Under the pieces are notes generated by a model, which searched no databases, was not told where the DNA came from, and saw only the letters and a program-made list of their open reading frames with translations. DNA of 24,524 bases. Source: Thainema sp. GTDB taxonomy: Bacteria > Cyanobacteriota > Cyanobacteriia > Phormidesmidales > Phormidesmidaceae. The number at the start of each line of letters is the position of its first letter. The first letter of the stretch is position 1. This document shows positions 11,288 through 24,524 of this stretch, piece after piece. The translations under genes and the position numbers were made by a program. The DNA is taken from positions 1 through 24,524 of the forward strand of contig JBQLZK010000080.1 in NCBI GenBank assembly GCA_052168235.1, read 5' to 3'.

Positions 11288-14200
11288 CTAAGCCATAATC
11301 TCAATCTGGTTTGCTTGCAGATTGTCGTAACCGTTGGTGAACGTCGCAAGAGTTCGAGCAACGTCACTGCCCATACCATCCTCATCAAAACTGAGAGTAT
11401 GGGTACTGGTATTGAAGAGGAATGTTCCCATATTTGTTGTCGCCACAGGATTACTGCTTCTGATAAAGCGGCTGTTGTCCAAATTCATTCCAGACACCAA
11501 ACCACCATCAAAGCCCGTAGCAGATACCACAATCCAATCATCGACACTAAAATCAGTAATCGTATCCGGCCCATCGTTAGGATTGAGGTAGACAAATCGA
11601 TCCGCACCTCCATTACCTGTCAGCACATCACTATCAAAACCGCTAGTAATTCGGTCGTCATAGGTGCTGCCAATCAGCTGAGTGACATCGCTAAATGATT
11701 CAGGATTCATCACCTCCTCGTACCATAGGTCACCCAATCGGTCATAACCCGATGCTGTGGGATGTACGCCATCGTTAATATCAGCTAGCGTCAATCCTCC
11801 CCCGGCATTCACGAAGAAAACGTTCATTCCAGCAGCAACTTTGTCGGCCACGAGTCCAGGTAAGCGGCTGTTAACTTCATTGGCCACAGCCACTTCACTA
11901 GCATTAGTTTTGTCAGTGCTAGCATCCAGCGGCGTTAGGGATGAAACCAATACAATGTTGTCATTGCGCGATGCATCATCAATCAGACTGCTCAACCGAC
12001 TGAGCACACTATCGGCGTTGCTACCCTGCAGAACATCATTGGTGCCCAACATCACCATGACAACATCAGGATCATAGTTATCAATCACACTGTCGCTGCC
12101 GCTTAATCTGCGATCGCGCATGTTATTGATTGTCCAACCGCGATGACCTTCGTGATCTTTATCTCCTAGCGCATCCGGTGCATCAGAATCAAAGGCGCTA
12201 CCTACAAAATCGATCCGCAGCGTCGGATCGTCGGTAATCAGGCCATCTGCGATCGCGCGTTGCCAAAACTGGGTGCGGTAAGAACCCGGCACAGGGTCGA
12301 TACTGTGATCTCCCTCCGTGATAGAGTCGCCCATTGGCATCAGTTTAGGCGCGGCTAAGTTGCCATACACAGGCTGCAGCACAGTTTGAGTCCGCAGATT
12401 GGCAATAATGCCGTTGCTGGCTAGACTATAGTCGCGCAGACCTCCGCTACTGGGGTCGCTGACCACAATCGATACGGTGGCAGTATCCGTCCCACCGCTA
12501 CCGTCGCTAACGGTATAGGTAAAGCTATCGGTGCCAGTAAAATCACCAGTTGGTATGTAAGTATAAGTTCCATCACCATTATCATTGAGCACCCCATTAG
12601 CAGGATCGGTCACGCTAATCAGTGTTAGCGGATCGCCATCCGCATCACTATCGTTACTCAATAAATCCGCGATAGACACTGATAATGATGTATTTGGATT
12701 AGTCACGAACACATCATTGGTAGCTGTCGGATCATCATCAACAGCCGTAACAGTTATGGTTACTATTTCAGTTGAGGTACCCTCATTTTCATCGCTGACG
12801 GTATAGGTAAAGCTATCGGTGCCGCTAAAGTTAGCAGCAGGTGTATAGGTAAAGCTGCCGTTAGCATTCATCACAACGGTGCCGCCCGAGGCAGAAGTCG
12901 TGTCGTACGCACTAACGCTGAGCGGACTATTTTCCGGATCGCTGTCGTTGCTAAGCACGCCCGTCGCCGCGTTGATCACCAGCTCTGTATCCTCAGCGGT
13001 ACTGTAGCTATCTGGCTGAGCAAGAGGCTGTTCATTAGCTGGGCCAACTGGAATAAACTCGATGTAGTCAACCCGCGCATTCTCACCTTGTGGATCTTGC
13101 AGACCAACAAGCTCAATTAAATCACCTGTATTGACCGTCAGTTCTGTCGCGACGGTGCGCAGCGTGAAGTTTTTAGCTTCAGCACGTGTACCACCAGGGC
13201 TGTTATCAAAGGCCCAACTATCGATTGAGCTGCCACCAATGTTGACGGTTAGCGTCGCTTCACCATCGCTTTCATCGTAGTAGCCAACAATGACTTTGTA
13301 CGTACCCGTTGCGCCTGTGAAAGCGGTGGATGCTGTACCCGTTGCACCTGTTAAGCCAATGTATTCACCCGCTGAGGCAAAGCTTTTGGCTTCGACACCA
13401 TAGCTGCTACTGAGGGCCATATCTTCCGCTTCCAAGCGAATGGGATCGAGGGAAACAGGCGGCTGTGGATCAACGGTTACCGTTACGATCGCAGTATCAA
13501 CACCGCCATTGCCGTCATTGACGGTATACGTGAAGCTGTCTGTACCTGTAAACCCTGAGTTAGGCGTGTAGCTATACGTGCCGTTGCCATTATTGGTCAG
13601 CGTTCCATTGGAGGGGTTGCCAACGCTGATGCTCAACGAATCACCATCAATATCGCTGTCATTACCCAGTAGCTCGGCTGTTGACAGTACTAACTCCGTT
13701 TCTGCCACGGTGCTAAAGGTATCATCGGTAGCCGCAGGTTGATCATTTACAGCGGTAACGGTGACGGTAACCGTCGCTGTATCCGTATCACCATTTCCGT
13801 CATCAATGGTGTAGGTGAAGCTATCTGTACCGCTGAAGTTCGCATTCGGTGTGTAGGTGTACGTGCCGTTGCCATTATTGGTCAGCGAACCGTGGCTGGG
13901 CTGGGTCAGGTTGCTAATCGTCAAGGTCTGCCCATCCGCATCCATATCGTTACCCAGCAGAGTCGCTGGAGAAATAGCGAGCGGGGTATCTTCATCCGTT
14001 GCGATCGCATCATTCCCAGCCACTGGTGGCGTATTGACAAAATTGACCGCAATATTAACGGTTGCTGTAGCGGTTCCACCGTTGCCATCATTCACCGTGT
14101 AGGTAAAGCTATCAACGCCGCTGAAGCCACTGCTAGGTGTGTAAGTGAATGTGCCATCACCGTTGTTGATCACAGTACCATTAGCCGGATTTGTAAAGCT

Positions 14201-15829
14201 CTCCAGCGCTAAGGCATCTCCGTCAATGTCGCTGTCGTTGCTGAATAGATCAGCAGCAGAAAAGGTCAGTGGGGTATTAGAGCCGGTATTCAAAGTATCG
14301 TCAGCGGCAACAGGCACATCATTAGCCGCACTGACGGCGATCGTCACCGTTTCCGTTGCCGTACCACCATTCTCATCGCTGATGGTGTAGGTAAAGCTAT
14401 CGGTGCCGTTGAAGTTAGCAGCAGGCGTATAGGTAAAGCTGCCATTAGCATTCATCACAACGCTGCCACCCGAGGCAGAAGTGGTGTCGTAAGCGCTGAT
14501 GCTAAATGCGTCTCCTTCCGGATCGCTATCGTTGCTTAAAACGCCTGTAGCTGCATTGATAACTAATGCAGTCTCTTCAGCCGTGCTGTAGCTATCCGAC
14601 TGGGCGTTTGGAGCTGCGTTAGCGGGGCCAACTGGAATAAATTCGATGTAGTCAACCCGCGCATTCTCACCGCTTTCTTGGTAGCCAATCAGTTCAATCA
14701 GGCTACCGTTTGTGACAGTTACTTCGGCGGCAACAATCCGTTCAACAAAGTTTCTCTCTTCAGCCCGAGTTCCGCCCAGCGATTGGTCAAATACCCAGCT
14801 ATCTAGAGTTTGTCCACCAACTTTAACCGTAAGTGGAGATTTACCATCGTTTTCATCGTAGTAGCCAACGACAACCTTGTAAGTACCTGTCGCGCCAGTA
14901 AAGGTCGCAGAGGCAGTGCCACTTGGCCCACTCAGGCCGATATACTCACCCGCTGAGGCAAAGTTTTTGGCTTCAACCCCATAACTACCGCCTAGGGTCA
15001 TATCTTCTGCCTCAATCCGCAGTGGATCACCCGTAGGAACTGGATCTTCACTGGGCGGATCTTCGCTCGGCAGTACTGGATTAACGGTTAGCGTAACGGT
15101 ACCCGTGTCGGTGCCACCATTGCCATCCGTCAGCGTATAGATAAAGCTATCGGTGCCCGAAAACCCGTTCTCGGGAGTATAAGTAAAAGAACCATTCGAG
15201 CTAAGCGTTAAAGTTCCGTGACTGACGCCCTGATTCAAAACGACACTCAGCGCATCCCCGTTCCCATCTACATCATTGGCAATGACACCATTAGCAGTTG
15301 ACACGGCGAGCGTGTTGCCCGCATCGACCATGTAGCTATCTGCGATCGCATCTGGCGCAGTATTCGTATCCTCTGGAGGCGTTGGTGGTTCTTCCGATGG
15401 ATTGGTCGTATCGTTTACAACCAGATCGATATAGTCAAGCCGAGCGTTTTCACCCGCATCTTGTGTGCCTTCAATAGTTAAAACATCACCCTCTGCCAGG
15501 GTAACGCCCTCCAGCCGAAAGACATAGCGATTATTGGCTGAGGCACGAGTACTGCCTGAGGTGGAATCAAACACCCAGGCACTTCCCGGCAGTTCAACAC
15601 CGTTGAGCAAAATTCTTGCGGTCGATTGACCATCTTTTTCATCAAAATAGGCAACTTCAATGTCATAGGTGCCGACTTCAGCAGCACTAATTACTTTTGA
15701 AACTGTCCCAGATTCGCCCGTCAGCTTAACAATTGAATCGTTAGAGGCAAATTCAGCGATATCGCCATTAGTCTCAACACTATAGCCACTGAGAATCAGT
15801 GACTCAGCTTCGAAGCGAAGTCTATCCAT
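11288..15829 (-). CDS. Large secreted/surface protein: 3 CBM6/35-like modules, 7 cadherin-like Ig repeats, SGNH hydrolase domain, RTX-like C-terminus
   Basis: Three R.EAE...ARxDYI modules; seven N..P.A..D...NDxDxDG...GxFTYTP..F.GTDSFTYT..DG.GG repeats; SGNH blocks MGDSIT, GHRGWT, LGTND and DGVHP; C-terminal DVLTGNGGADRF...DTITDF; no signal peptide, consistent with type I secretion. Confidence 0.85.
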   Translation of the reverse strand: MDRLRFEAESLILSGYSVETNGDIAEFASNDSIVKLTGESGTVSKVISAAEVGTYDIEVAYFDEKDGQSTARILLNGVELPGSAWVFDSTSGSTRASANNRYVFRLEGVTLAEGDVLTIEGTQDAGENARLDYIDLVVNDTTNPSEEPPTPPEDTNTAPDAIADSYMVDAGNTLAVSTANGVIANDVDGNGDALSVVLNQGVSHGTLTLSSNGSFTYTPENGFSGTDSFIYTLTDGNGGTDTGTVTLTVNPVLPSEDPPSEDPVPTGDPLRIEAEDMTLGGSYGVEAKNFASAGEYIGLSGPSGTASATFTGATGTYKVVVGYYDENDGKSPLTVKVGGQTLDSWVFDQSLGGTRAEERNFVERIVAAEVTVTNGSLIELIGYQESGENARVDYIEFIPVGPANAAPNAQSDSYSTAEETALVINAATGVLSNDSDPEGDAFSISAYDTTSASGGSVVMNANGSFTYTPAANFNGTDSFTYTISDENGGTATETVTIAVSAANDVPVAADDTLNTGSNTPLTFSAADLFSNDSDIDGDALALESFTNPANGTVINNGDGTFTYTPSSGFSGVDSFTYTVNDGNGGTATATVNIAVNFVNTPPVAGNDAIATDEDTPLAISPATLLGNDMDADGQTLTISNLTQPSHGSLTNNGNGTYTYTPNANFSGTDSFTYTIDDGNGDTDTATVTVTVTAVNDQPAATDDTFSTVAETELVLSTAELLGNDSDIDGDSLSISVGNPSNGTLTNNGNGTYSYTPNSGFTGTDSFTYTVNDGNGGVDTAIVTVTVDPQPPVSLDPIRLEAEDMALSSSYGVEAKSFASAGEYIGLTGATGTASTAFTGATGTYKVIVGYYDESDGEATLTVNIGGSSIDSWAFDNSPGGTRAEAKNFTLRTVATELTVNTGDLIELVGLQDPQGENARVDYIEFIPVGPANEQPLAQPDSYSTAEDTELVINAATGVLSNDSDPENSPLSVSAYDTTSASGGTVVMNANGSFTYTPAANFSGTDSFTYTVSDENEGTSTEIVTITVTAVDDDPTATNDVFVTNPNTSLSVSIADLLSNDSDADGDPLTLISVTDPANGVLNDNGDGTYTYIPTGDFTGTDSFTYTVSDGSGGTDTATVSIVVSDPSSGGLRDYSLASNGIIANLRTQTVLQPVYGNLAAPKLMPMGDSITEGDHSIDPVPGSYRTQFWQRAIADGLITDDPTLRIDFVGSAFDSDAPDALGDKDHEGHRGWTINNMRDRRLSGSDSVIDNYDPDVVMVMLGTNDVLQGSNADSVLSRLSSLIDDASRNDNIVLVSSLTPLDASTDKTNASEVAVANEVNSRLPGLVADKVAAGMNVFFVNAGGGLTLADINDGVHPTASGYDRLGDLWYEEVMNPESFSDVTQLIGSTYDDRITSGFDSDVLTGNGGADRFVYLNPNDGPDTITDFSVDDWIVVSATGFDGGLVSGMNLDNSRFIRSSNPVATTNMGTFLFNTSTHTLSFDEDGMGSDVARTLATFTNGYDNLQANQIEIMA

Positions 15830-16324: not shown

Positions 16325-18169
16325 ATGTTTGCACGGACACAACCTCCAGACATGCTGTATCCGCTGAGTGCATTTGTAGAAGATAAATTTTCGGTCGATG
16401 GGGCAACATCGACAGCCGCAACCTATTGGTACGTCGGTATTTGCCCCCAGCAGCAAGTGACGCGGCAACTGCCTCGTACCCCACAAGCGGAAACGGTGGC
16501 GCGAAGTCTGATGGCCCAGTTAACGACCGATCAGCGCTATAGTCGCGAAGCCAAGATGTACGGCGTTTTGCTCGTTCACACCGCCACAGGAGACGTGGGC
16601 GTGCTCAAAGCCTTCTCTGGCCTGCTAAACGGCTGCAGTGTGATCGCAGGCTGGGTGCCACCGATTCCGGGTCGCGATCGCATTTCTATCGCTGAGGCTC
16701 AAACCCTGACTCAACTGGAAGCGATTAAGCAAGAATTAATTCAGCTTAGCCAACTTCCAGCCCGCCAGCAGCTCGATCAGCGAGCAGCAGATTTTGCCGA
16801 ACAATTGAGATCGCAGGCGGCAGACCATCGCGATCGCAAACAGCAGCGCCACCAGTTGCGCCACCAATTGCAAGCCACGCTTAGCGGCAGCGAACTGGCC
16901 GCCGCTCTGGCAAACTTAGATCGTCAGAGCCAGCAAGACGGAATCGCCCGCCGTCGCCTCAAACAGCAGCGCGATGCGGCCCTAAAACCTCTGCAAGATG
17001 AGGTCAATGCCGCAGATGCCACAATGCATCAGCTCAAACAGCAGCGCAAACAAATTTCGCGTCAGCTCCAAGACCAAATGCACGCGGCCTATCAGCTCAC
17101 CAATTTTGCCGGAGAGTCAGTTAGCCTAGATCAACTAATGCCCGCTCTGCCGACGGGTACAGGCGATTGCTGCGCCCCTAAGCTGTTGCACTATGCTGCG
17201 ACCCACGGATTGAAACCATTGGCAATGGCCGAATTCTGGTGGGACGGGACGTTTAAGACTGATACTAATCGTGATGCTAATCGTAACGGTATAACCGAGA
17301 GCGATACGGACAATAGCGGGAAGCAGTCAGGTTGCTTCTATGGGGCCTGCACTGAACGCTGTCAGCCGATTATGGGCTTTTTGCTATCGGGGCTGACGCA
17401 TTTTGCCGATGTAGTGGTTAGCTCTCATCCTAAATCCCTCTCCCACGGGGAGAGGGACTTTGAGGTTCCTGCACCTTTGCTGGACATCATTTATGAAGAT
17501 GCCGATTTGATTGCCGTCAATAAACCTGCGGGTCTTTTATCAGTACCCGGTCGCTATCTTCACAATCAAGATAGCGTGCTCAGTCGCTTACGCTGTCAGT
17601 ATCAAGAGGGTGAACCCAATAGTGAACCCAATCATGATGGCCTTAGCGCTGTGCATCGCCTTGATCAGGATACATCCGGCATTTTGCTGATTGCTCGTCA
17701 TGCCGCCGCTGCCCGTCATCTCCGTCAGCAGTTTCAGCAGCGCCAAGTACACAAGCGGTACGTCGCTATTCTTGCAGGTCAGGTATTGGCCCAATCCGGG
17801 GTGATTGAACTACCGCTCCGCGCCGATCCGACCGATCGACCTCGACAGATTGTGGACTGGCAACAGGGCAAGCCTTGTGTCACCAAGTTTCAGGTGTTAG
17901 CTTCCGTACAAATCGCAGAGGGCTACCGTACAGAGGTTGAGTTTTTTCCAGTTACCGGACGTACCCATCAACTGCGAGTCCACGCTGCGGCACCAGAGGG
18001 TTTGAATGCGCCGATTTTGTGCGATCGCATTTACGGTACCCAAACTGTCGCTCACAGCGATCGGCTGTATCTACACGCCCAATCCCTGCAAATACAGCAT
18101 CCCCGTACTGACAAGTGGCTGCACCTACAAACGCCAGGACCTTGGCCTGATTGGAAAAGTGAGGAGTGA
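16325..18169 (+). CDS. RluA-family pseudouridine synthase with long N-terminal/coiled-coil extension
   Basis: VNKPAGLLSVPG, catalytic HRLDQDTSG, TGRTHQLRVH, RLYLHA; N-terminal KMYGVL, LKAFSG and GTGDCCAPKLL of the long RluA subtype. The start may be ATG 16352. Confidence 0.92.
   Translation: MFARTQPPDMLYPLSAFVEDKFSVDGATSTAATYWYVGICPQQQVTRQLPRTPQAETVARSLMAQLTTDQRYSREAKMYGVLLVHTATGDVGVLKAFSGLLNGCSVIAGWVPPIPGRDRISIAEAQTLTQLEAIKQELIQLSQLPARQQLDQRAADFAEQLRSQAADHRDRKQQRHQLRHQLQATLSGSELAAALANLDRQSQQDGIARRRLKQQRDAALKPLQDEVNAADATMHQLKQQRKQISRQLQDQMHAAYQLTNFAGESVSLDQLMPALPTGTGDCCAPKLLHYAATHGLKPLAMAEFWWDGTFKTDTNRDANRNGITESDTDNSGKQSGCFYGACTERCQPIMGFLLSGLTHFADVVVSSHPKSLSHGERDFEVPAPLLDIIYEDADLIAVNKPAGLLSVPGRYLHNQDSVLSRLRCQYQEGEPNSEPNHDGLSAVHRLDQDTSGILLIARHAAAARHLRQQFQQRQVHKRYVAILAGQVLAQSGVIELPLRADPTDRPRQIVDWQQGKPCVTKFQVLASVQIAEGYRTEVEFFPVTGRTHQLRVHAAAPEGLNAPILCDRIYGTQTVAHSDRLYLHAQSLQIQHPRTDKWLHLQTPGPWPDWKSEE
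17422..17464. repeat. Cyanobacterial-type small palindromic dispersed repeat embedded in-frame in the RluA gene
   Basis: CTCTCATCCTAAA-TCCCTCTCCC-ACG-GGGAGAGGGA-CTTTGAG (10-bp stem), lying in the interdomain linker (SHPKSLSHGERDFE). Confidence 0.6.
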
Positions 18170-18230
18170 AGAGTGAGGCGAGAGGAATTAGGAGTGAGGC
18201 GTAAATTCAATCTCACTCAGCACTCAGCAC
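18158..18230. repeat. STRR-like heptamer tandem repeats in opposed orientation between convergent genes
   Basis: AGTGAGG AGTGAAG AGTGAGG CGAGAGG AATTAGG AGTGAGG (18158-18199), followed by TCTCACT CAGCACT CAGCAC (18211-18230). Confidence 0.7.
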
Positions 18231-18238
18231 GTTTCTCC

Positions 18239-18538
18239 CTAATGGCCATGCGTGGGACAGGGTGGCGCAGAAATTGAGCGATCGAGCCAGCCTGTAGCCT
18301 GCTGTAGACGAGCGAGGGCTTCTTCCGGCTGATTGTTGAGCAGATAGACTAATGCTGATGCCGCTTGCTCTTGGGCGCGGGCTTTGCGGTTGCCCTTGAG
18401 GCGGTGCCAATCATTCGGTGCGATCGCAAGTTTTTCAGCCAGAACTTGAGCCAGCACAGCGGGGTCAGCCTGCCGCAAATCGTTTAGGTCAGGAGTCGGA
18501 ACCGATTGGGGTACAGATTGAACAGTGGAGTCAGCCAT
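18239..18538 (-). CDS. Small conserved cyanobacterial hypothetical protein (DUF6439-like)
   Basis: LAIAPNDWHRLKGNR...A.EQ...WLDRSISAPPCPTHG. The family name is from memory and was not verified. Start placed at ATG 18538. Confidence 0.75.
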   Translation of the reverse strand: MADSTVQSVPQSVPTPDLNDLRQADPAVLAQVLAEKLAIAPNDWHRLKGNRKARAQEQAASALVYLLNNQPEEALARLQQATGWLDRSISAPPCPTHGH

Positions 18539-18724
18539 AATATTTGTGAGAATGTGCTTTGCCATCAATATGCTGACTTCATTGTGACGTAGATTTTGCG
18601 CCTTGCGTCACTGGATTGAAAACGGGGCAAAGTGTGACGTTCTTTTTCAAAACAGTGAATTCAATCGCCAATTTAGACTATGTATAGATGGCCGTGCTGA
18701 ACATAACGCTAAATAACGCCTTAC

Positions 18725-19135
18725 ATGTCTGCATCTCCACCTCCCTCCAACCCTGAATCACCAGAACCCAACGCTCCGGTTGAAGGATGGGATGAACTCG
18801 TAGCACAACTGCAAGCAACCGAGCAGTCGCTTCAAGAATTGCGGTTGCGGTTCGAACAGGTGGAAACTAGCTATCAGCACCAACAATATCTAGAGCAGCA
18901 GCAGCAGCGAGCCAAACAGGATCTAAAGCAGGCCAGTGACGAACAGCAGCAATCCCGGCAGCAAGAGCTAAAACAAGAACTCAAGCGGGTGCAGCAGCAG
19001 CTTGATGAAGTGGAACTCGCGCTGGAAAGCCGCTTGTTCTCGTGGCGTAGTTTTCGGGAACCCTTTTGGCAAGCCGTTCGATTTGGTGGTATCGGGGTGA
19101 TATTAGGCTGGATTTTAAAGTCTTGTGCTGGCTAG
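18725..19135 (+). CDS. Conserved hypothetical coiled-coil protein with C-terminal membrane anchor
   Basis: Q/E-rich heptads followed by LESRLFSW...FWQAVRFGGIGVILGWILK. Confidence 0.8.
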   Translation: MSASPPPSNPESPEPNAPVEGWDELVAQLQATEQSLQELRLRFEQVETSYQHQQYLEQQQQRAKQDLKQASDEQQQSRQQELKQELKRVQQQLDEVELALESRLFSWRSFREPFWQAVRFGGIGVILGWILKSCAG

Positions 19136-19183
19136 TTTGGCACTTGATTAGGCCATTAATTTGGTACTACAGCGGGATAACAC

Positions 19184-21463
19184 ATGCAGATCGACTGGCG
19201 GCACCTGATTTGGCGATGGCGCGGAGCCTTGATTGCAGCACCCAGCATGGCTGGGCTAGTTATCCTGCTGCGCCTCATGGGCCTACTGCAACCCTGGGAA
19301 TGGAGTGCCTACGACTGGATGTTGCGATCGCGCCCATCAGAATCAATCCGCGATCGCATTGTCATTGTCGGAATTAACGAAGCAGATATTCAGGCATTCG
19401 GGCAAGCCAGCCTGCCGGATGCAGTCTATGCCGAAGCACTAGACATCCTGATAGCTCAACAGCCCCGCGCCATTGGGCTCGATATTTATCGAGATGTGCC
19501 CGTAGAACCGGGTCATACAGAACTCGTCCAGATCTTTGAGTCTACGCCCAATCTGATTGGCATTCAGAAAGTGGTCGGAGATGCCGAGCAGGATGTGGTT
19601 GCACCACCGCCTGCGCTGCAAGCTAAGGGCCAGGTGGGTGCAAACGACATTATTCTGGACGCCGACGGTCGAGTGCGACGCGGCTTCATTTCGGTCACGG
19701 GCGCAGCAGGAAACGAGGTATTTAGCCTCGGTGCCTATCTGGCGCTGCTGTACTTGAATGCAGAAGGGATTGGGTTTGACATAGTTGATGAGCAGTCTTG
19801 GTGGCTGGGGGACAGCTTATTCACACCGCTAGAAGCCAATGACGGCAGCTACGTCCGTACCGATGCCGGAGGCTATCAGATTGTGCTCAACTACCATCAT
19901 CCAGATCATTCCACCAGATCATCCGACACAATATTTGACACGGTTTCCTTAACCGCCGTGCTCAACCAGCAAATTCCTCCAGACTGGGGCCGCGATCGCA
20001 TTATTCTCATCGGCAATCTTAGTGAAAGCTCCAAAGATGCCTTTTTTACGCCCTACAGCGGCGGAGTATTGGGTTCACCCCGACCGATGATGGGAGTAGA
20101 AATTCATGCCCATCTCACCAGCCAAATCCTGAGCGCTGCGCTGGATGGCCGCTCCCTCATCCAAGTGTGGCCAGATAGCGTGGAAAACTTGTGGATTGTG
20201 ATCTGGTCAAGCGTTGGTGCACTGCTAGCGTGGCGATTCCGCTTACCCACTCAGCATCGGTTACGAGTAGCCGAGCGGATAGGAACTTTGGCGATCGCAA
20301 TTCTCAGTCTGATCACCATCGGCTACGGCGCACTGGTTGCAGGCTGGTGGATTCCCGTCGTACCGCCGCTGTTAGGCTTGGTCGGATCTGCGATCGCAGT
20401 TATGGGTTACGTGGCCTATACGGCTAGCGATATTCGCCGCACGTTTGGTCGCTATCTCAGTGATGACGTGGTGGCGACGCTGCTGGAGCAGCCCGGTGGG
20501 CTGCAACTAGGCGGCGAACGACGCACCATCACAATTTTGACCTCCGACCTGCGCGGTTTTACCACCGTCTCGGCTCAGCTCTCGCCGGAAATGGTGATCC
20601 GAGTGCTCAACTTTTATCTGGGCCGGATGGCCGATGTGATTACGGCCTACGGCGGCACAATTGACGAGTTTATGGGCGATGGCATTCTGGTGCTGTTTGG
20701 TGCGCCAACGCAGCATGAGGACGACGTGGAGCGGGCGGTGGCCTGTGCGATCGCAATGCAGCAGGCCATTCCCCAAGTTAATCAACAGATTACTGACTGG
20801 CAACTTTCACCTTTGGCAATGGGAATTGCGGTGCATCTGGGTGAGGTGGTGGTGGGCAATATCGGTTCTGAGAAGCGCGCAAAGTATGGTGTGGTAGGCA
20901 GCGCGGTGAATCTCACCTATCGGATTGAGTCCTACACCACGGGAGGACAAGTACTGGTGTCGGATGCGGTGCTGGCAGCGGTGCCTGATCTGCTCCAGAT
21001 TGACAAGTCGTTTGAGATTCAGCCCAAGGGAGTGGCGGAACCGATTCAGATTCATAGCGTTCGGGGGGTGGCCGGAACGCATCAGCTCTATTTACCGACG
21101 ACCGAGGAAACCTGGCAAGATTTGACAGAACCCGTGGCGGTTCAATATGCCGTTTTGGTCGGCAAGCAGGTGCAGCCGCATCAGTTTACGGGACAAATTC
21201 TGCGCCTTTCCCAACAGGGGGCTTTGATTCAAGGTAATCCCACAATTCGGCGCTCGGCGTTAGATCCAAGCGGTATGGCAATTGCGATGCGTCCCTATCT
21301 CAATCTCAAAATCAGCTTTGTCTCAACTCATCCGCTGCTGCAAAATTTGGAAATCTATGCCAAAGTCCGCGATAAAAAGGCGAAAGCGGGCCAGTTTTTT
21401 GTCGAATTTACCAGTCCGTCTACGGCGTTGGCTCAATATGTAACATTGCGATCGCAGAAGTAG
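19184..21463 (+). CDS. CHASE2-domain class III nucleotidyl cyclase (Cya2-like, probable guanylyl cyclase) with PilZ-like C-terminus
   Basis: CHASE2 (DRIVIVGINEADI, IGLDIYRD, MMGVEIHA), three TM helices, cyclase motifs SDLRGFT, IDEFMGDG, GNIGS and YGVVGSAVNLTYRIE. Confidence 0.9.
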   Translation: MQIDWRHLIWRWRGALIAAPSMAGLVILLRLMGLLQPWEWSAYDWMLRSRPSESIRDRIVIVGINEADIQAFGQASLPDAVYAEALDILIAQQPRAIGLDIYRDVPVEPGHTELVQIFESTPNLIGIQKVVGDAEQDVVAPPPALQAKGQVGANDIILDADGRVRRGFISVTGAAGNEVFSLGAYLALLYLNAEGIGFDIVDEQSWWLGDSLFTPLEANDGSYVRTDAGGYQIVLNYHHPDHSTRSSDTIFDTVSLTAVLNQQIPPDWGRDRIILIGNLSESSKDAFFTPYSGGVLGSPRPMMGVEIHAHLTSQILSAALDGRSLIQVWPDSVENLWIVIWSSVGALLAWRFRLPTQHRLRVAERIGTLAIAILSLITIGYGALVAGWWIPVVPPLLGLVGSAIAVMGYVAYTASDIRRTFGRYLSDDVVATLLEQPGGLQLGGERRTITILTSDLRGFTTVSAQLSPEMVIRVLNFYLGRMADVITAYGGTIDEFMGDGILVLFGAPTQHEDDVERAVACAIAMQQAIPQVNQQITDWQLSPLAMGIAVHLGEVVVGNIGSEKRAKYGVVGSAVNLTYRIESYTTGGQVLVSDAVLAAVPDLLQIDKSFEIQPKGVAEPIQIHSVRGVAGTHQLYLPTTEETWQDLTEPVAVQYAVLVGKQVQPHQFTGQILRLSQQGALIQGNPTIRRSALDPSGMAIAMRPYLNLKISFVSTHPLLQNLEIYAKVRDKKAKAGQFFVEFTSPSTALAQYVTLRSQK

Positions 21464-21553
21464 TTGAAGTCACGCTTGATGGAAATGGTGCGTTCTAATC
21501 AACTGCGCTACAAACAGCAAAGGTTGTATTAAGGAAAGCATCCTACAAGAACT

Positions 21554-21561
21554 GCGATCGC
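21554..21561. repeat. HIP1 octamer GCGATCGC, last copy in the window, abutting the terminal attC
   Basis: Read directly. Other copies include 660, 4370, 10541, 14001, 18021 and 21448; none was found in 21562-24524. Confidence 0.9.
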
Positions 21562-21646
21562 ACTAACGGTTCGGGTGAGCGGTTGCCAGAACCTTTGCAA
21601 CTCAGCAAGTGGCTTAGGTAAATCTGCTGCACCCGAATTGTTAGAT
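21561..21646 (-). other. attC recombination site (closes the orphan-gene cassette)
   Basis: Minus strand ATCTAAC-AATTCGGGTG(C)AGCAG...CCGCTCACCCGAACC-GTTAGTG with one extrahelical base (G on the + / bottom strand); starts 18 bp after the stop at 21665. Confidence 0.88.
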
Positions 21647-21664
21647 TGCTGGAAAGTGCCTTGA

Positions 21665-22288
21665 TTAAGGGCAACCCCATGATGTCACAGCCAACAAACT
21701 TGCGCCTTCGCTTTTTACCTTTTCTAAAGCTCTTGGAATAGCATAAAGAGCATCTGAAACATCCTTTGCTGCGTGATCATCAAATCCCGCATAATCTAAC
21801 ACCAGCTTTGATCGCTCAAAATAAGCCTCCCAGTCAACATCAAGAATACGTGAGACAGATGCTAGCGTTGTCTCAACTTCACTTGCATGAATTAGCATAT
21901 TGCCGAGATGACCTGGAAGCTGAGCAAACCTTTCACTACCAATTCCCATTAGCAGAATAGCGGGCGGAGCTACGCGAGATTGCATGACCATCTCAACAAT
22001 ACTTTCAGGAGATAAAGGGAACTCCTCCTGCAAGATTCGACAACCTATCTCGTTGAAAGGTTCGTGATAGAGACTGGAACTCAAGTCTCCTCCTGCCAAT
22101 ACACCTTCTAGCACTGAGTAAGCATAATCCTCAGTTACAGGAATGGGTGGGTTCTTGGGTCGAGGTGCAAGGTTTGGCACTTCAGGAAGATCAGGTACTC
22201 CTTGCATTGCTTGCTCGAATTCTGACTGCACGACTGAAAATTCAGATTCCTCAACCTTACAAAACCACCAGAAAACATCAACGCCCAT
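21665..22288 (-). CDS. Hypothetical protein, integron cassette gene (207 aa, acidic)
   Basis: ORF fills the cassette between two attC sites. ATG 22288 (MGVDVFWW...) is preceded by AAGGGA. No recognisable family. Confidence 0.75.
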   Translation of the reverse strand: MGVDVFWWFCKVEESEFSVVQSEFEQAMQGVPDLPEVPNLAPRPKNPPIPVTEDYAYSVLEGVLAGGDLSSSLYHEPFNEIGCRILQEEFPLSPESIVEMVMQSRVAPPAILLMGIGSERFAQLPGHLGNMLIHASEVETTLASVSRILDVDWEAYFERSKLVLDYAGFDDHAAKDVSDALYAIPRALEKVKSEGASLLAVTSWGCP

Positions 22289-22406
22289 ATTTTCCCTTGA
22301 GTAGCAGAACTTTGAATTATGCTTCCCAATCTGCCTCAGCAATTAACTTTACTTTGAGAGCCAGGACAGACAGCTTTGAAGTATGTCTTTACCCAAAAAT
22401 TAAGCG

Positions 22407-22493
22407 ATCTAACGGTTTGGTTGAGCGGCTGTTCGTAACCTTTGCATCCTTGCCAGCAACGTTTGGTAGTCCGCTCCAACCGAATTGTTAGAC
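22407..22493 (-). other. attC recombination site (closes the TIR/nuclease cassette)
   Basis: Minus strand GTCTAAC-AATTCGGTTG(G)AGCGG...CCGCTCAACCAAACC-GTTAGAT; starts 8 bp after the stop at 22502. Confidence 0.9.
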
Positions 22494-22501
22494 ACGTTTG
22501 T

Positions 22502-23041
22502 CTATTCATGCTGCAAGTAGAATCTTTCAACGAGATCGACTATTAAATCACATGGATCTTCACCCCGTTCTTTGATAAAAAGCATTTCCTTGAGATGTTC
22601 TTTAGTCATAAAAAGAATTACCTTCCCATGTCGACTATATATAGTGTTTCGTTGTATATGAGCACCATTGTCGGGAAGCTTGCTACATATCATAATTGCA
22701 AGCCTACCCATAGGTTCAGTCAGGTAATTATCAGTTTGGATTACCTCTTCATGTCCGATATCTGTTGTTCCATAGTTTTTGAACTCAAAAAGTACCATCC
22801 TTGCTTCTAATTCCCGAAGCAGCAACCCCCAACCATGCTTCTCATCAAAGTTGCGATTAGGAAATACAGCGTCTCGGCGATTTGTACCAGAGTATGTTCG
22901 AGGCTGAGTGATTGGTTTAACCAATGGTGGAACAAATAAGAATTCAAGAACTTCTGTGCATAAGTCCTCAAATTCTCGCCAACCTCTTTCTCCGGCAGGG
23001 CAGTTATCAAGCCGATTGACCAAATCAGTAATTCGGCTCAT
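22502..23041 (-). CDS. PD-(D/E)xK restriction-endonuclease-like protein, coupled to the upstream TIR gene
   Basis: EFEDLC...RRDAVFPN...LFEFKNY motif order (E, D, ExK); ATGA overlap with 23038..23910. Confidence 0.72.
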   Translation of the reverse strand: MSRITDLVNRLDNCPAGERGWREFEDLCTEVLEFLFVPPLVKPITQPRTYSGTNRRDAVFPNRNFDEKHGWGLLLRELEARMVLFEFKNYGTTDIGHEEVIQTDNYLTEPMGRLAIMICSKLPDNGAHIQRNTIYSRHGKVILFMTKEHLKEMLFIKERGEDPCDLIVDLVERFYLQHE

Positions 23042-23910
23042 GAGGCGTTGCTCAAGCTGGGAGGAAAGTATTTGGAGACCAAATCAGTATTTTGTAGGAG
23101 AAGTCTTTTCAACTCCGTCCCATCAATGACACGGATTGAAATACCAAGGTTTTGGGGGGCATTATTTACCCAATCAAGAGCAGCAGATGTAAGGTTCCCA
23201 TTTGTAACAAGAAGCGCTTTATTGATTTTGGGATCGCTTTTAGCAATTCCAACTAGCTGTCTAAGTGCTGGTAAATCTGCGCGAGAATGACGATAAAGCT
23301 TAGTTTCGACAGCGTAAACATCACGAGTTTCAGCACCAAATGGGTCTTTTTGGCGAAACTCAACAACAGCATCAAACCCCCTGTCTCTTTGTTGCATCTC
23401 CAGATGCAAATTAACAAAACCAAGTTTTTGGAGAAGATCTACGACTAGTTGCTCAAAAATTTGTGGAGATAATTTTTCAAAATCAATTTTGGGAGTGGCC
23501 TTTAAAGCTTCAGCAAGTTCCTCTAAATTCTCTTTAACTCCGCTTCTCATATCAAAAAATTGATACATAGCAAGAGAGGGCGGAATATCACAGTCCTCTA
23601 AAAGCACAGGTATGAAGGTAACGTCTCGACTTTGTAACTCCTTTAATGCAGCATCAACTTCATAATTCATCCAAGAAGAACGTACCAAATTTTTAGACAG
23701 TAGAAGTAGAAAATAAGCACTGGCTGAAATGGCAGTGCGAATAGATTCAGCCCAATGATTTCCTGGACGAAGTTCATCAGTATCTAGCCACACTTTGAGA
23801 TCCAGCGAACACAACCCTTCCACAATCGATTTTGCAGTCGCACTGTCTGCGCTTGCATAGGTTACAAAAACTTGTGGTCTTTGTTGTGAGTTGCGTTCAA
23901 GAGTGTTCAT
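23038..23910 (-). CDS. TIR domain-Mrr-like restriction endonuclease fusion
   Basis: TIR: VFVTYASAD, VWLD...LRPG..W...I..AI, SSWMNYE (catalytic Glu position), FIPVLLEDC. Mrr_cat: FEQLVVDLL..LGF, DRGFD, VETKLY, LLVTN, VIDGTELKRLL. Confidence 0.88.
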   Translation of the reverse strand: MNTLERNSQQRPQVFVTYASADSATAKSIVEGLCSLDLKVWLDTDELRPGNHWAESIRTAISASAYFLLLLSKNLVRSSWMNYEVDAALKELQSRDVTFIPVLLEDCDIPPSLAMYQFFDMRSGVKENLEELAEALKATPKIDFEKLSPQIFEQLVVDLLQKLGFVNLHLEMQQRDRGFDAVVEFRQKDPFGAETRDVYAVETKLYRHSRADLPALRQLVGIAKSDPKINKALLVTNGNLTSAALDWVNNAPQNLGISIRVIDGTELKRLLLQNTDLVSKYFPPSLSNAS

Positions 23911-24055
23911 AATCCAATCCCTATGGGAAAGAGGAGCATTCAGGTAGGTATGCGCAGGACTAGCTTCACCTAAAATCTTAACTCATCGTAATAACAGCAC
24001 TTGCAATTCCCCAATTAAGGCTAAAACGTAATTCTTCTAACCTTGGGGCTGAGGT

Positions 24056-24141
24056 GTCTAACAATGAAGTTGAGCCGCGAACGACGCTTAGTCAGCGTCG
24101 TCGGGCTAACGGCGTTCGTCGGCTCCAACGAGTAGTTAAGT
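24056..24141 (-). other. attC recombination site (closes the ORF-less first cassette)
   Basis: Minus strand ACTTAAC-TACTC-GTTG(G)AGCCG(A)CGAACG...CGTTCGCGGCTCAAC-TTCATT-GTTAGAC, with two extrahelical bases and an inner hairpin ACGACGCT/AGCGTCGT. Confidence 0.88.
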
Positions 24142-24230
24142 CGTGGCGGAGATCGCTCTTTTAGGATTCCCAAGCACTAACAGACAACTGCTATATTTGC
24201 CTTATAAAATAACCTTTGAATCCGCTATCG

Positions 24231-24249
24231 ATTTAACTATTTATTAGAG
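24231..24249 (-). other. Putative attI simple site
   Basis: Minus strand CTCTAAT-AAATA-GTTAAAT: inverse box, 5-bp A-rich spacer, GTTRRRY, the same layout as attI1 (CCCTAAA-ACAAA-GTTRRRY). Confidence 0.55.
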
Positions 24250-24255
24250 TGAAAC

Positions 24256-24394
24256 TTTCTGCCTAATACCCCTATTCGGATGATTAGGCAGAAATACGTC
24301 AGCCTAACACGCCTATTTGGGTCATTAGGTAGAAATACGTCAGCCTAACACCCTGATTTGGGTGATTAGGCAGAAAAATTCAGTATAATCACCC
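24256..24394. repeat. Three ~41-bp tandem repeats of inverted GCCTAAY/ATTAGGY boxes
   Basis: Units at 24261-24301, 24302-24342 and 24343-24382, plus a partial fourth (GTATAATCACCC). Confidence 0.85.
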
Positions 24395-24524
24395 CTACAA
24401 CTCCAGGCTCACGCTGTTTAGAGAGTATTTATTATCCTTCAATATATATTCACTCCATGCAGCCGTCTCAGGGCACTGGTCGTCTAGAGGGTGATTGCTA
24501 AAATGGATGTGATGCATTGGTTTT

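Follow-up and report, generated by a model that had tools for sequence, protein, structure and literature searches.

The window analysed here, the whole 24,524-nt contig JBQLZK010000080.1 (C80) of the cyanobacterium Thainema sp. (assembly GCA_052168235.1), carries at one end an integron element in which an array of three cassettes, each ending in an attC recombination site, adjoins an attI platform whose integrase gene, intI, is cut to five codons. That an integron element lies at this locus is almost beyond doubt. By the IntegronFinder definition, as given in the available text of PMC4889954, it is an attC cluster that lacks an integron integrase (CALIN), with two or more attC sites and a short array of unknown genes but without a recognisable intI close by; unlike a bare CALIN, it keeps attI, a probable cassette promoter (Pc) and the intI stub, in a genome that holds ten platforms. 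The explanation that we consider likely is that these platforms are dispersed landing pads loaded in trans, the window holding one of the ten, and that the array is now probably frozen, since no intact intI was found. On this explanation, a chromosomal platform with Pc and a repeat-extended attI would already have had its intI reduced to five codons by the time the present array reached its full length. An integrase made elsewhere in the cell, from a copy since lost or unassembled or arriving on foreign DNA, would have joined the folded + strand of each cassette attC to double-stranded attI at G|TT, and Pc would transcribe the inserted array.

An earlier reading of the letters by a model (the sequence-only reading) had noticed three imperfect hairpins of 86–87 bp and proposed an integron array without a working intI. 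The hairpins are attC sites, oriented on the minus strand and clustered within 2.6 kb: 24056..24141 ends the first, gene-less cassette, 22407..22493 ends cassette A, and 21561..21646 ends cassette B, the last in the array. Cyanobacterial attC sites are already known (PMC8352920). A covariance model was built from 16 attC sites of 85–87 bp, gathered beside intact intI genes of relatives to avoid circularity, with both this genome and its sister species left out; in its training alignment both partners vary at 9 of the 16 pairs and none of 500 shuffles reaches the score, so the covariation is real. Applied to the 24.5-kb window, the model returns five matches, namely the three sites on the + strand (35.6, 68.2 and 57.5 bits in array order, E 4e-14 to 1e-6) and the opposite strand of two of them. 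All three sites fold on the + (bottom) strand, at −19.2, −16.8 and −20.5 kcal/mol (in order of increasing coordinate) with DNA parameters, and show there the R''/L''/L'/R' hairpin layout with extrahelical bases. The RYYYAAC...GTTRRRY-like ends described by the sequence-only reading hold for AAC...GTT, present on the minus (top) strand at all three sites, and fail for the full consensus at the last core, GTTAGTG, whose final two letters depart from RRRY. Genome-wide, with 150 scored candidates per genome, the model finds at least 20 attC sites in this genome and at least 14 in the sister species.

A loose home-made scan for such hairpins yielded 87 candidates across the genome, largely noise, as might be expected were these sites terminators or repetitive extragenic palindrome (REP)-like repeats with ends complementary by chance. 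That reading is not tenable: an independent model picks out the sites at the E values above, the cassette borders recur in other organisms, and scans found no terminator-like site in 23850–24524 and no Rfam match in 18000–24524.

The segments between the sites behave as cassettes. Two of the hairpins lie 8 and 18 bp past stop codons, and the two larger cassettes have complementary entry and exit ends, over 9 bp for cassette A (22413–24061) and 7 bp for cassette B (21567–22412); these distances and lengths, first noted in the sequence-only reading, were reproduced on recalculation. Their borders lie at the crossover and recur both in other organisms and in contigs from other sequencing runs, identifying them as mobile units. 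The same cassette A is found at attI in two other cyanobacteria (loci L071 and L072), where homology begins at the G|TT of attI; it ends in attC at L071 and starts at attI at L072. A contig of another run covers 22431–24062 (cassette A), and one covers 21641–22416 (cassette B) before running into unlike sequence. Among the sequencing runs listed as containing the stretch there was none of RNA. Contigs from four DNA runs contained neither excised circles nor clean cassette-skipping joints, and none of them spans the array. The base composition also sets the array apart, as had been claimed: its GC content of 0.43, against 0.51 on the left, falls in the bottom 3% of 2701 windows of 2.7 kb taken from the genome. 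The highly iterated palindrome HIP1, which occurs at 1.19 sites per kb in this 7.5-Mb genome of 205 contigs, is absent from 2909 bp here; with a chance of ∼0.03 at the genome rate, this absence is a modest sign alone.

Besides the gene-less cassette itself, what the sequence-only reading overlooked lies upstream of the first cassette and includes the end of an insertion sequence. Within the last ∼290 bases of the contig, a platform at 24231–24471 comprises attI with three palindromic repeats of 41 bp, the probable Pc and the intI stub, the layout found upstream of intI in intact integrons of relatives. The simple attI site occupies 24231..24249 (−), with its left box at 24243–24249, a 5-bp spacer and the crossover G|TT between 24237 and 24236. 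A BLAST search shows that this stretch recurs on eight other contigs, and the nine copies are alike up to the GTT (window 24237–24235) and unlike beyond it, except on C41, which shares the first cassette. Against a profile built from attI sites of 18 intact integrons of relatives, the window site is the top score among 61 cyanobacterial genomes (51.8 bits; 82 candidates scored per genome, 17 of the searched genomes being in the training set). The profile matches at least 48 of the 61, including at least 17 of the 23 that lack an IntI match at E≤1e-20, and misses seven genomes with an IntI match. This arrangement bears on whether the cassettes were inserted one after another at chance genomic GTT sites (attG) with no platform involved. 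IntI is reported to insert cassettes at short GWT genome sites (10.1101/2022.09.11.507474, available text), and the array does run into host DNA right past G|TT, but a full attI, the repeats and the stub lie directly upstream in canonical orientation, which refutes the idea for the upstream end and leaves it a very slim chance overall. As a separate observation, one intact integron (L061, ∼12366–12400) has a second attI-like end directly past its first attC, resembling the delta-attI cassettes in the available text of PMC12901181.

The three repeats (24258..24380, −) each consist of an inverted pair of boxes resembling those of attI. Across 33 platforms, sequence autocorrelation peaks at a lag of 41, with R-type boxes at −31, −72 and −113 and L-type boxes at −52, −93 and −134 relative to the crossover; platforms of this genome carry one to three units of 41 bp (∼four helical turns). 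The arms of the unit covary across genera, with 24 cells changed on both sides versus 12.8 in shuffles, and the left box of the unit tracks the true L box (108 matches versus 96.2 ± 3.7, among related sequences that are not independent). We infer that the repeats are accessory integrase-binding sites comparable to DR1 and DR2 of attI1. According to the available text of PMC4792948 and PMC8946536, class 1 attI1 likewise has L and R boxes, accessory sites upstream and a crossover in the R box, its accessory sites being two direct repeats in ∼65 bp rather than one to three inverted-box units of 41 bp. Between the repeats and the stub, a TATACT hexamer facing the array (24382..24387, −) is the presumed −10 box of Pc; shared among platforms, it is present in eight of the nine aligned platforms of this genome and in 7 of 27 from other genomes. 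A metagenome scan for the stub–promoter pattern gave no matches.

The intI stub (24457..24471, +) diverges from the array and encodes MQPSQ, matching in position, and nearly in sequence, the beginning of IntI both on C41 and in relatives. It is cut by the end of an insertion sequence (IS) at 24472..24524 (+), where the contig stops; this end is common to eight other contig ends. We take the element to belong to the IS1 family from an InsA-like zinc-ribbon open reading frame (ORF) on contig C191, an assignment made by eye. The other flank is on C77, where the opposite IS end is followed by a 7–8 bp target duplication and at once by HIP1, with no intI sequence. Because HIP1, and not intI, stands on this flank, intI had already been lost when the IS arrived: truncation at HIP1 preceded the IS1 insertion. 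The same junction between codon 5 and HIP1 is found at C36 and, in the sister species, at the C36 orthologue as well as a further locus, which indicates that truncation came first and that the cut platform was then copied. Beyond the stub on C77, and also on C36, lies a small ORF that was considered as a platform gene and rejected: it belongs to a repeat family with a ∼64-codon ORF, present in 14 copies of 79–100% identity (G000 C77 27297–27509, C36 55632–55844 and 12 more contigs). Separately, C41 opens (positions 1–85) with a perfect palindrome made of two IS ends back to back, which probably arose as an artefact of assembly.

Where a complete integron has an intact intI beside attI, the window has the five-codon stub only. 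The genome-wide search for intI that the sequence-only reading called for found remnants on C41 and C71 only, both N-terminal, of 70 and ∼37 codons; the integron integrase model TIGR02249 gives a single, 62-position N-terminal match, on C41. PF00589 has five matches in the genome, of which only that on C104 (29% over 69 aa) was also returned by tblastn with IntI. Across the sample, TIGR02249 scores above cut-off in 30 of 61 genomes, often in several copies, some of them part-deleted, and in none of the sister species, G027 and G060. The idea that intI itself travels as a cassette or with a fixed downstream end was dropped, the 260 bases past intI in 29 loci sharing no end by eye.

Further platforms of the genome carry the evidence for cassette exchange after intI was lost. 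Ten attI platforms were located, on C1, C4, C36, C41, C56, C60, C71, C80, C125 and C170, all at E≤6.4e-6 in a profile search for which the best value in a reversed-genome control was 2.1. (On C170, at 922–1019, the attI core GTT seems interrupted a few bases before the crossover.) Those on C41, C1, C36 and C60 have orthologues in the sister species, each pair having its intI-side junction in common within a single alignment (464, 3002, 182 and 2892 bp); the downstream flank is also syntenic at C1 and C36, and the synteny of the C36 pair rests on that flank. In all four pairs of this two-species comparison the first cassette differs from G|TT onward. Since only the integrase changes sequence at G|TT, these differences at pads with a shared truncation suggest that an integrase acted there after intI had been lost in cis.

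Orphan platforms are also common in well-assembled genomes. Among 27 attI loci of five closed or nearly closed genomes (a count that omits five intI-linked loci of G005), two have a full intI, five an N-terminal remnant and one a C-terminal intI piece at a distance of 1.7 kb; the remaining 19 lack intI within 2.5 kb. The complete genome G043 has one intact intI, located away from four orphan attI sites that are ∼99% identical over 470 bp and lead into four different first cassettes; these four (L110, L111, L113 and L114) lie behind, or are flanked by, IS1-like elements. Two of them share more than 2.5 kb of upstream DNA holding two genes named by eye, one PIN-like and the other methyltransferase-like and truncated.

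These comparisons bear most directly on plain decay in place, in which the locus's own intI loaded all three cassettes and was then deleted, leaving attI dead since. CALINs are listed as arising, among other ways, when intI is lost (PMC4889954, available text), relatives hold many part-deleted intI copies, and in Xanthomonas a shared intI lesion usually goes with identical arrays among strains (10.1101/2025.06.18.660453, available text). Yet the codon-5/HIP1 junction recurs on three platforms located elsewhere, the gene-less cassette and its copy on C41 are 99% identical, the latter being the one whose platform has an intI lesion older than the species split, and all four orthologous pads exchanged cassettes. 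We regard decay in place as unlikely, if the most serious competitor to loading in trans.

The comparison with C41 leads to a further reading, in which a block made up of the platform and part or all of the array was copied with no integrase involved, by HIP1-assisted or homologous recombination, by gene conversion from C41 or by transposition as an IS1 composite. C80 and C41 match at 95% across 416 bp, with 18 mismatches in the 237 platform bases and only 1 in the 173 of the shared gene-less cassette, a contrast that suggests either a recent move of this cassette or gene conversion. HIP1 sites bracket the platform-plus-array block on both sides, the right border with host DNA being a HIP1 octamer at 21554..21561 that starts 3 bp past the GTT of the last attC; site-specific and illegitimate recombination have both been connected with HIP1 (PMC4390886, available text), and IS1 flanks the duplicated pads of G043. 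Against this, the C80/C41 match stops 4 bp past the attC G|TT, where integrase would cut, and the IS1 here has the target duplication of a simple insertion. Nor do arrays generally end at HIP1, an idea that we rejected: its core lies within 12 bp past the GTT at 5 of 133 attC sites, with ∼2.3 expected (19 G043 sites being counted apart and 14 sites without an initial GTT left out). At four of the 133 the core stands at one same offset past the GTT, against a background of 0.11% per site, and three of these are in this genome (window 21554–21567, G000 C4 33623 and C51 14195; the fourth is L138 5506). As an account of the array, block copying is improbable, somewhat more so than decay in place; it probably explains the spread of pads and is then compatible with landing pads loaded in trans.

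Several observations weigh against the landing-pad explanation. Neither TIGR02249 nor tblastn with the full IntI of relatives found an intact intI in this genome or the sister species, which are two drafts of 205 and ∼190 contigs. The gradient of C80/C41 mismatches (12/90, 6/147, 1/173) is also compatible with gene conversion, and a consensus promoter scan did not flag Pc. The window locus has no orthologous platform to compare, being empty in the sister species, so loading in trans at this locus is carried over from the other loci. There the C77-side and C80-side genes stand ∼260 bp apart with neither the array nor the neighbouring CHASE2-cyclase gene; gene content thus differs between relatives, as expected of an inserted array in the sequence-only reading, but an exact empty site is not claimed, the gap not being alignable and the neighbouring gene also being missing. 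Finally, only 9 of the 20 attC sites listed lie downstream of a recognised platform, the other 11 having none (some at contig ends), and an attI-core match was found at 5 of 40 attC-led loci of relatives, within a short upstream reach; not every cyanobacterial CALIN, then, has an attI.

The cassettes themselves differ in content. The gene-less first cassette (24062..24236, −) is 175 bp long, with a long terminal inverted repeat, and its attC has an identical copy on C41. It occurs at seven loci in six genomes, a count that leaves out three short matches of 22–28 bp, and is first after attI in all seven. A structured RNA is not claimed, as the long terminal stem shows no net covariation (+0.69). 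Gene-less cassettes that show promoter activity have reportedly been described in integrons; the present one shares with them an attC without an ORF.

Cassette A (1649 bp, −) carries two translationally coupled genes. The upstream one (23038..23910, −) encodes a 290-aa fusion in which TIR_2 and Mrr_cat both score above the Pfam cut-off; the TIR glutamate is not invariant among 10 aligned homologues. Its stop overlaps the start of the second gene (22502..23041, −), which encodes a 179-aa protein with a PD-(D/E)xK nuclease-like fold, invariant Asp57, Glu86 and Lys88, and 932 homologues of very constant length. A structural model of this protein (pLDDT [predicted local distance difference test] 92.5) is closest to restriction nucleases, the best being MspJI at E 1.3e-3, and no structural match reaches E≤0.001; the protein also gives a partial PADLOC match to PDC-M36A (E 5e-15). 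The TIR-Mrr gene stands directly upstream of the nuclease gene in 29 of 30 loci from cyanobacteria, other bacteria and archaea, with an attC by the covariance model at only one of the 30, so that the pair is often not a cassette. At two archaeal loci (L093 5540–5630 and L097 1590–1680) attC-like hairpins seen by eye, and unscored by the cyanobacterial covariance model, flank the pair. Because of its TIR, Mrr and nuclease domains, cassette A is a candidate anti-phage module. It shares TIR_2, Mrr_cat and a partner with a restriction-nuclease fold with known TIR/Mrr modules (Thoeris ThsB, type IV restriction enzymes, PADLOC PDC-M36A); unlike those named systems, its proteins have no full-length match to a curated defence system, NCBIfam scores lying far below cut-off and the PADLOC match being partial. 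No description of the TIR-Mrr pair was found in the literature searched, which consisted mostly of open-access main texts.

Cassette B (21567..22412, 846 bp, −) carries an ORF of 225 aa that most likely starts 18 codons later, giving 207 aa (21665..22288, −), the length of its best homologues. It has 27 homologues, those with named organisms being cyanobacterial, and no family match was found for it. Adjoining the array, a gene for a CHASE2 and adenylate/guanylate cyclase protein (19184–21463, +) has no orthologue at the sister-species locus (best match 36%). Farther away, 11288–15829 (−) encodes a 1513-aa protein that, by eye, we take to contain many cadherin/immunoglobulin-like repeats and a C-terminal SGNH-like domain.

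The element has much in common with the sedentary integrons of Xanthomonas (10.1101/2025.06.18.660453, available text), namely a platform in the chromosome that is inherited vertically at a fixed locus, and intI lesions. It differs from their single ancestral locus in that here there are many loci with one to three cassettes each, whose arrays differ at all four loci with a shared junction, two species rather than strains being compared. The same study and PMC4889954 have put forward the idea that CALIN cassettes can be mobilised in trans. The literature consulted, including the available text of PMC8618304, 10.1101/2025.07.23.666183 and PMC12901181, contained no description of a 41-bp-phased cyanobacterial attI, nor of a dispersed, integrase-poor layout of many pads with sequence evidence of continued use; the supplements of PMC4889954 and PMC8352920 may list cyanobacterial arrays.

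More generally, there is perhaps an even chance that many cyanobacteria run a distributed integron, in which scattered pads of attI and Pc with 41-bp-phased boxes are loaded in trans by one integrase, or a passing one. Such pads would be copied without intI, through IS1 composites or HIP1-bounded segments, and kept by selection. The available text of PMC4889954 leaves four routes to the origin of CALINs and treats attI as unknown for most integrons and not searchable. CALIN origin and continued use are open partly for that reason, and the attI profile obtained here for cyanobacteria makes the question testable. Loading of orphan pads in trans, if it occurs, would mean that a platform can be uncoupled from its integrase, and the pads would offer natural promoter-equipped landing sites for cyanobacterial engineering. 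Cassette A is a candidate anti-phage module ready to hand, with a distribution that takes in cyanobacteria, other bacteria and archaea. Should the distributed integron be real, some cyanobacterial CALINs would be live sites of capture and expression rather than relics, recruiting unnamed defence modules such as the TIR-Mrr and nuclease pair.

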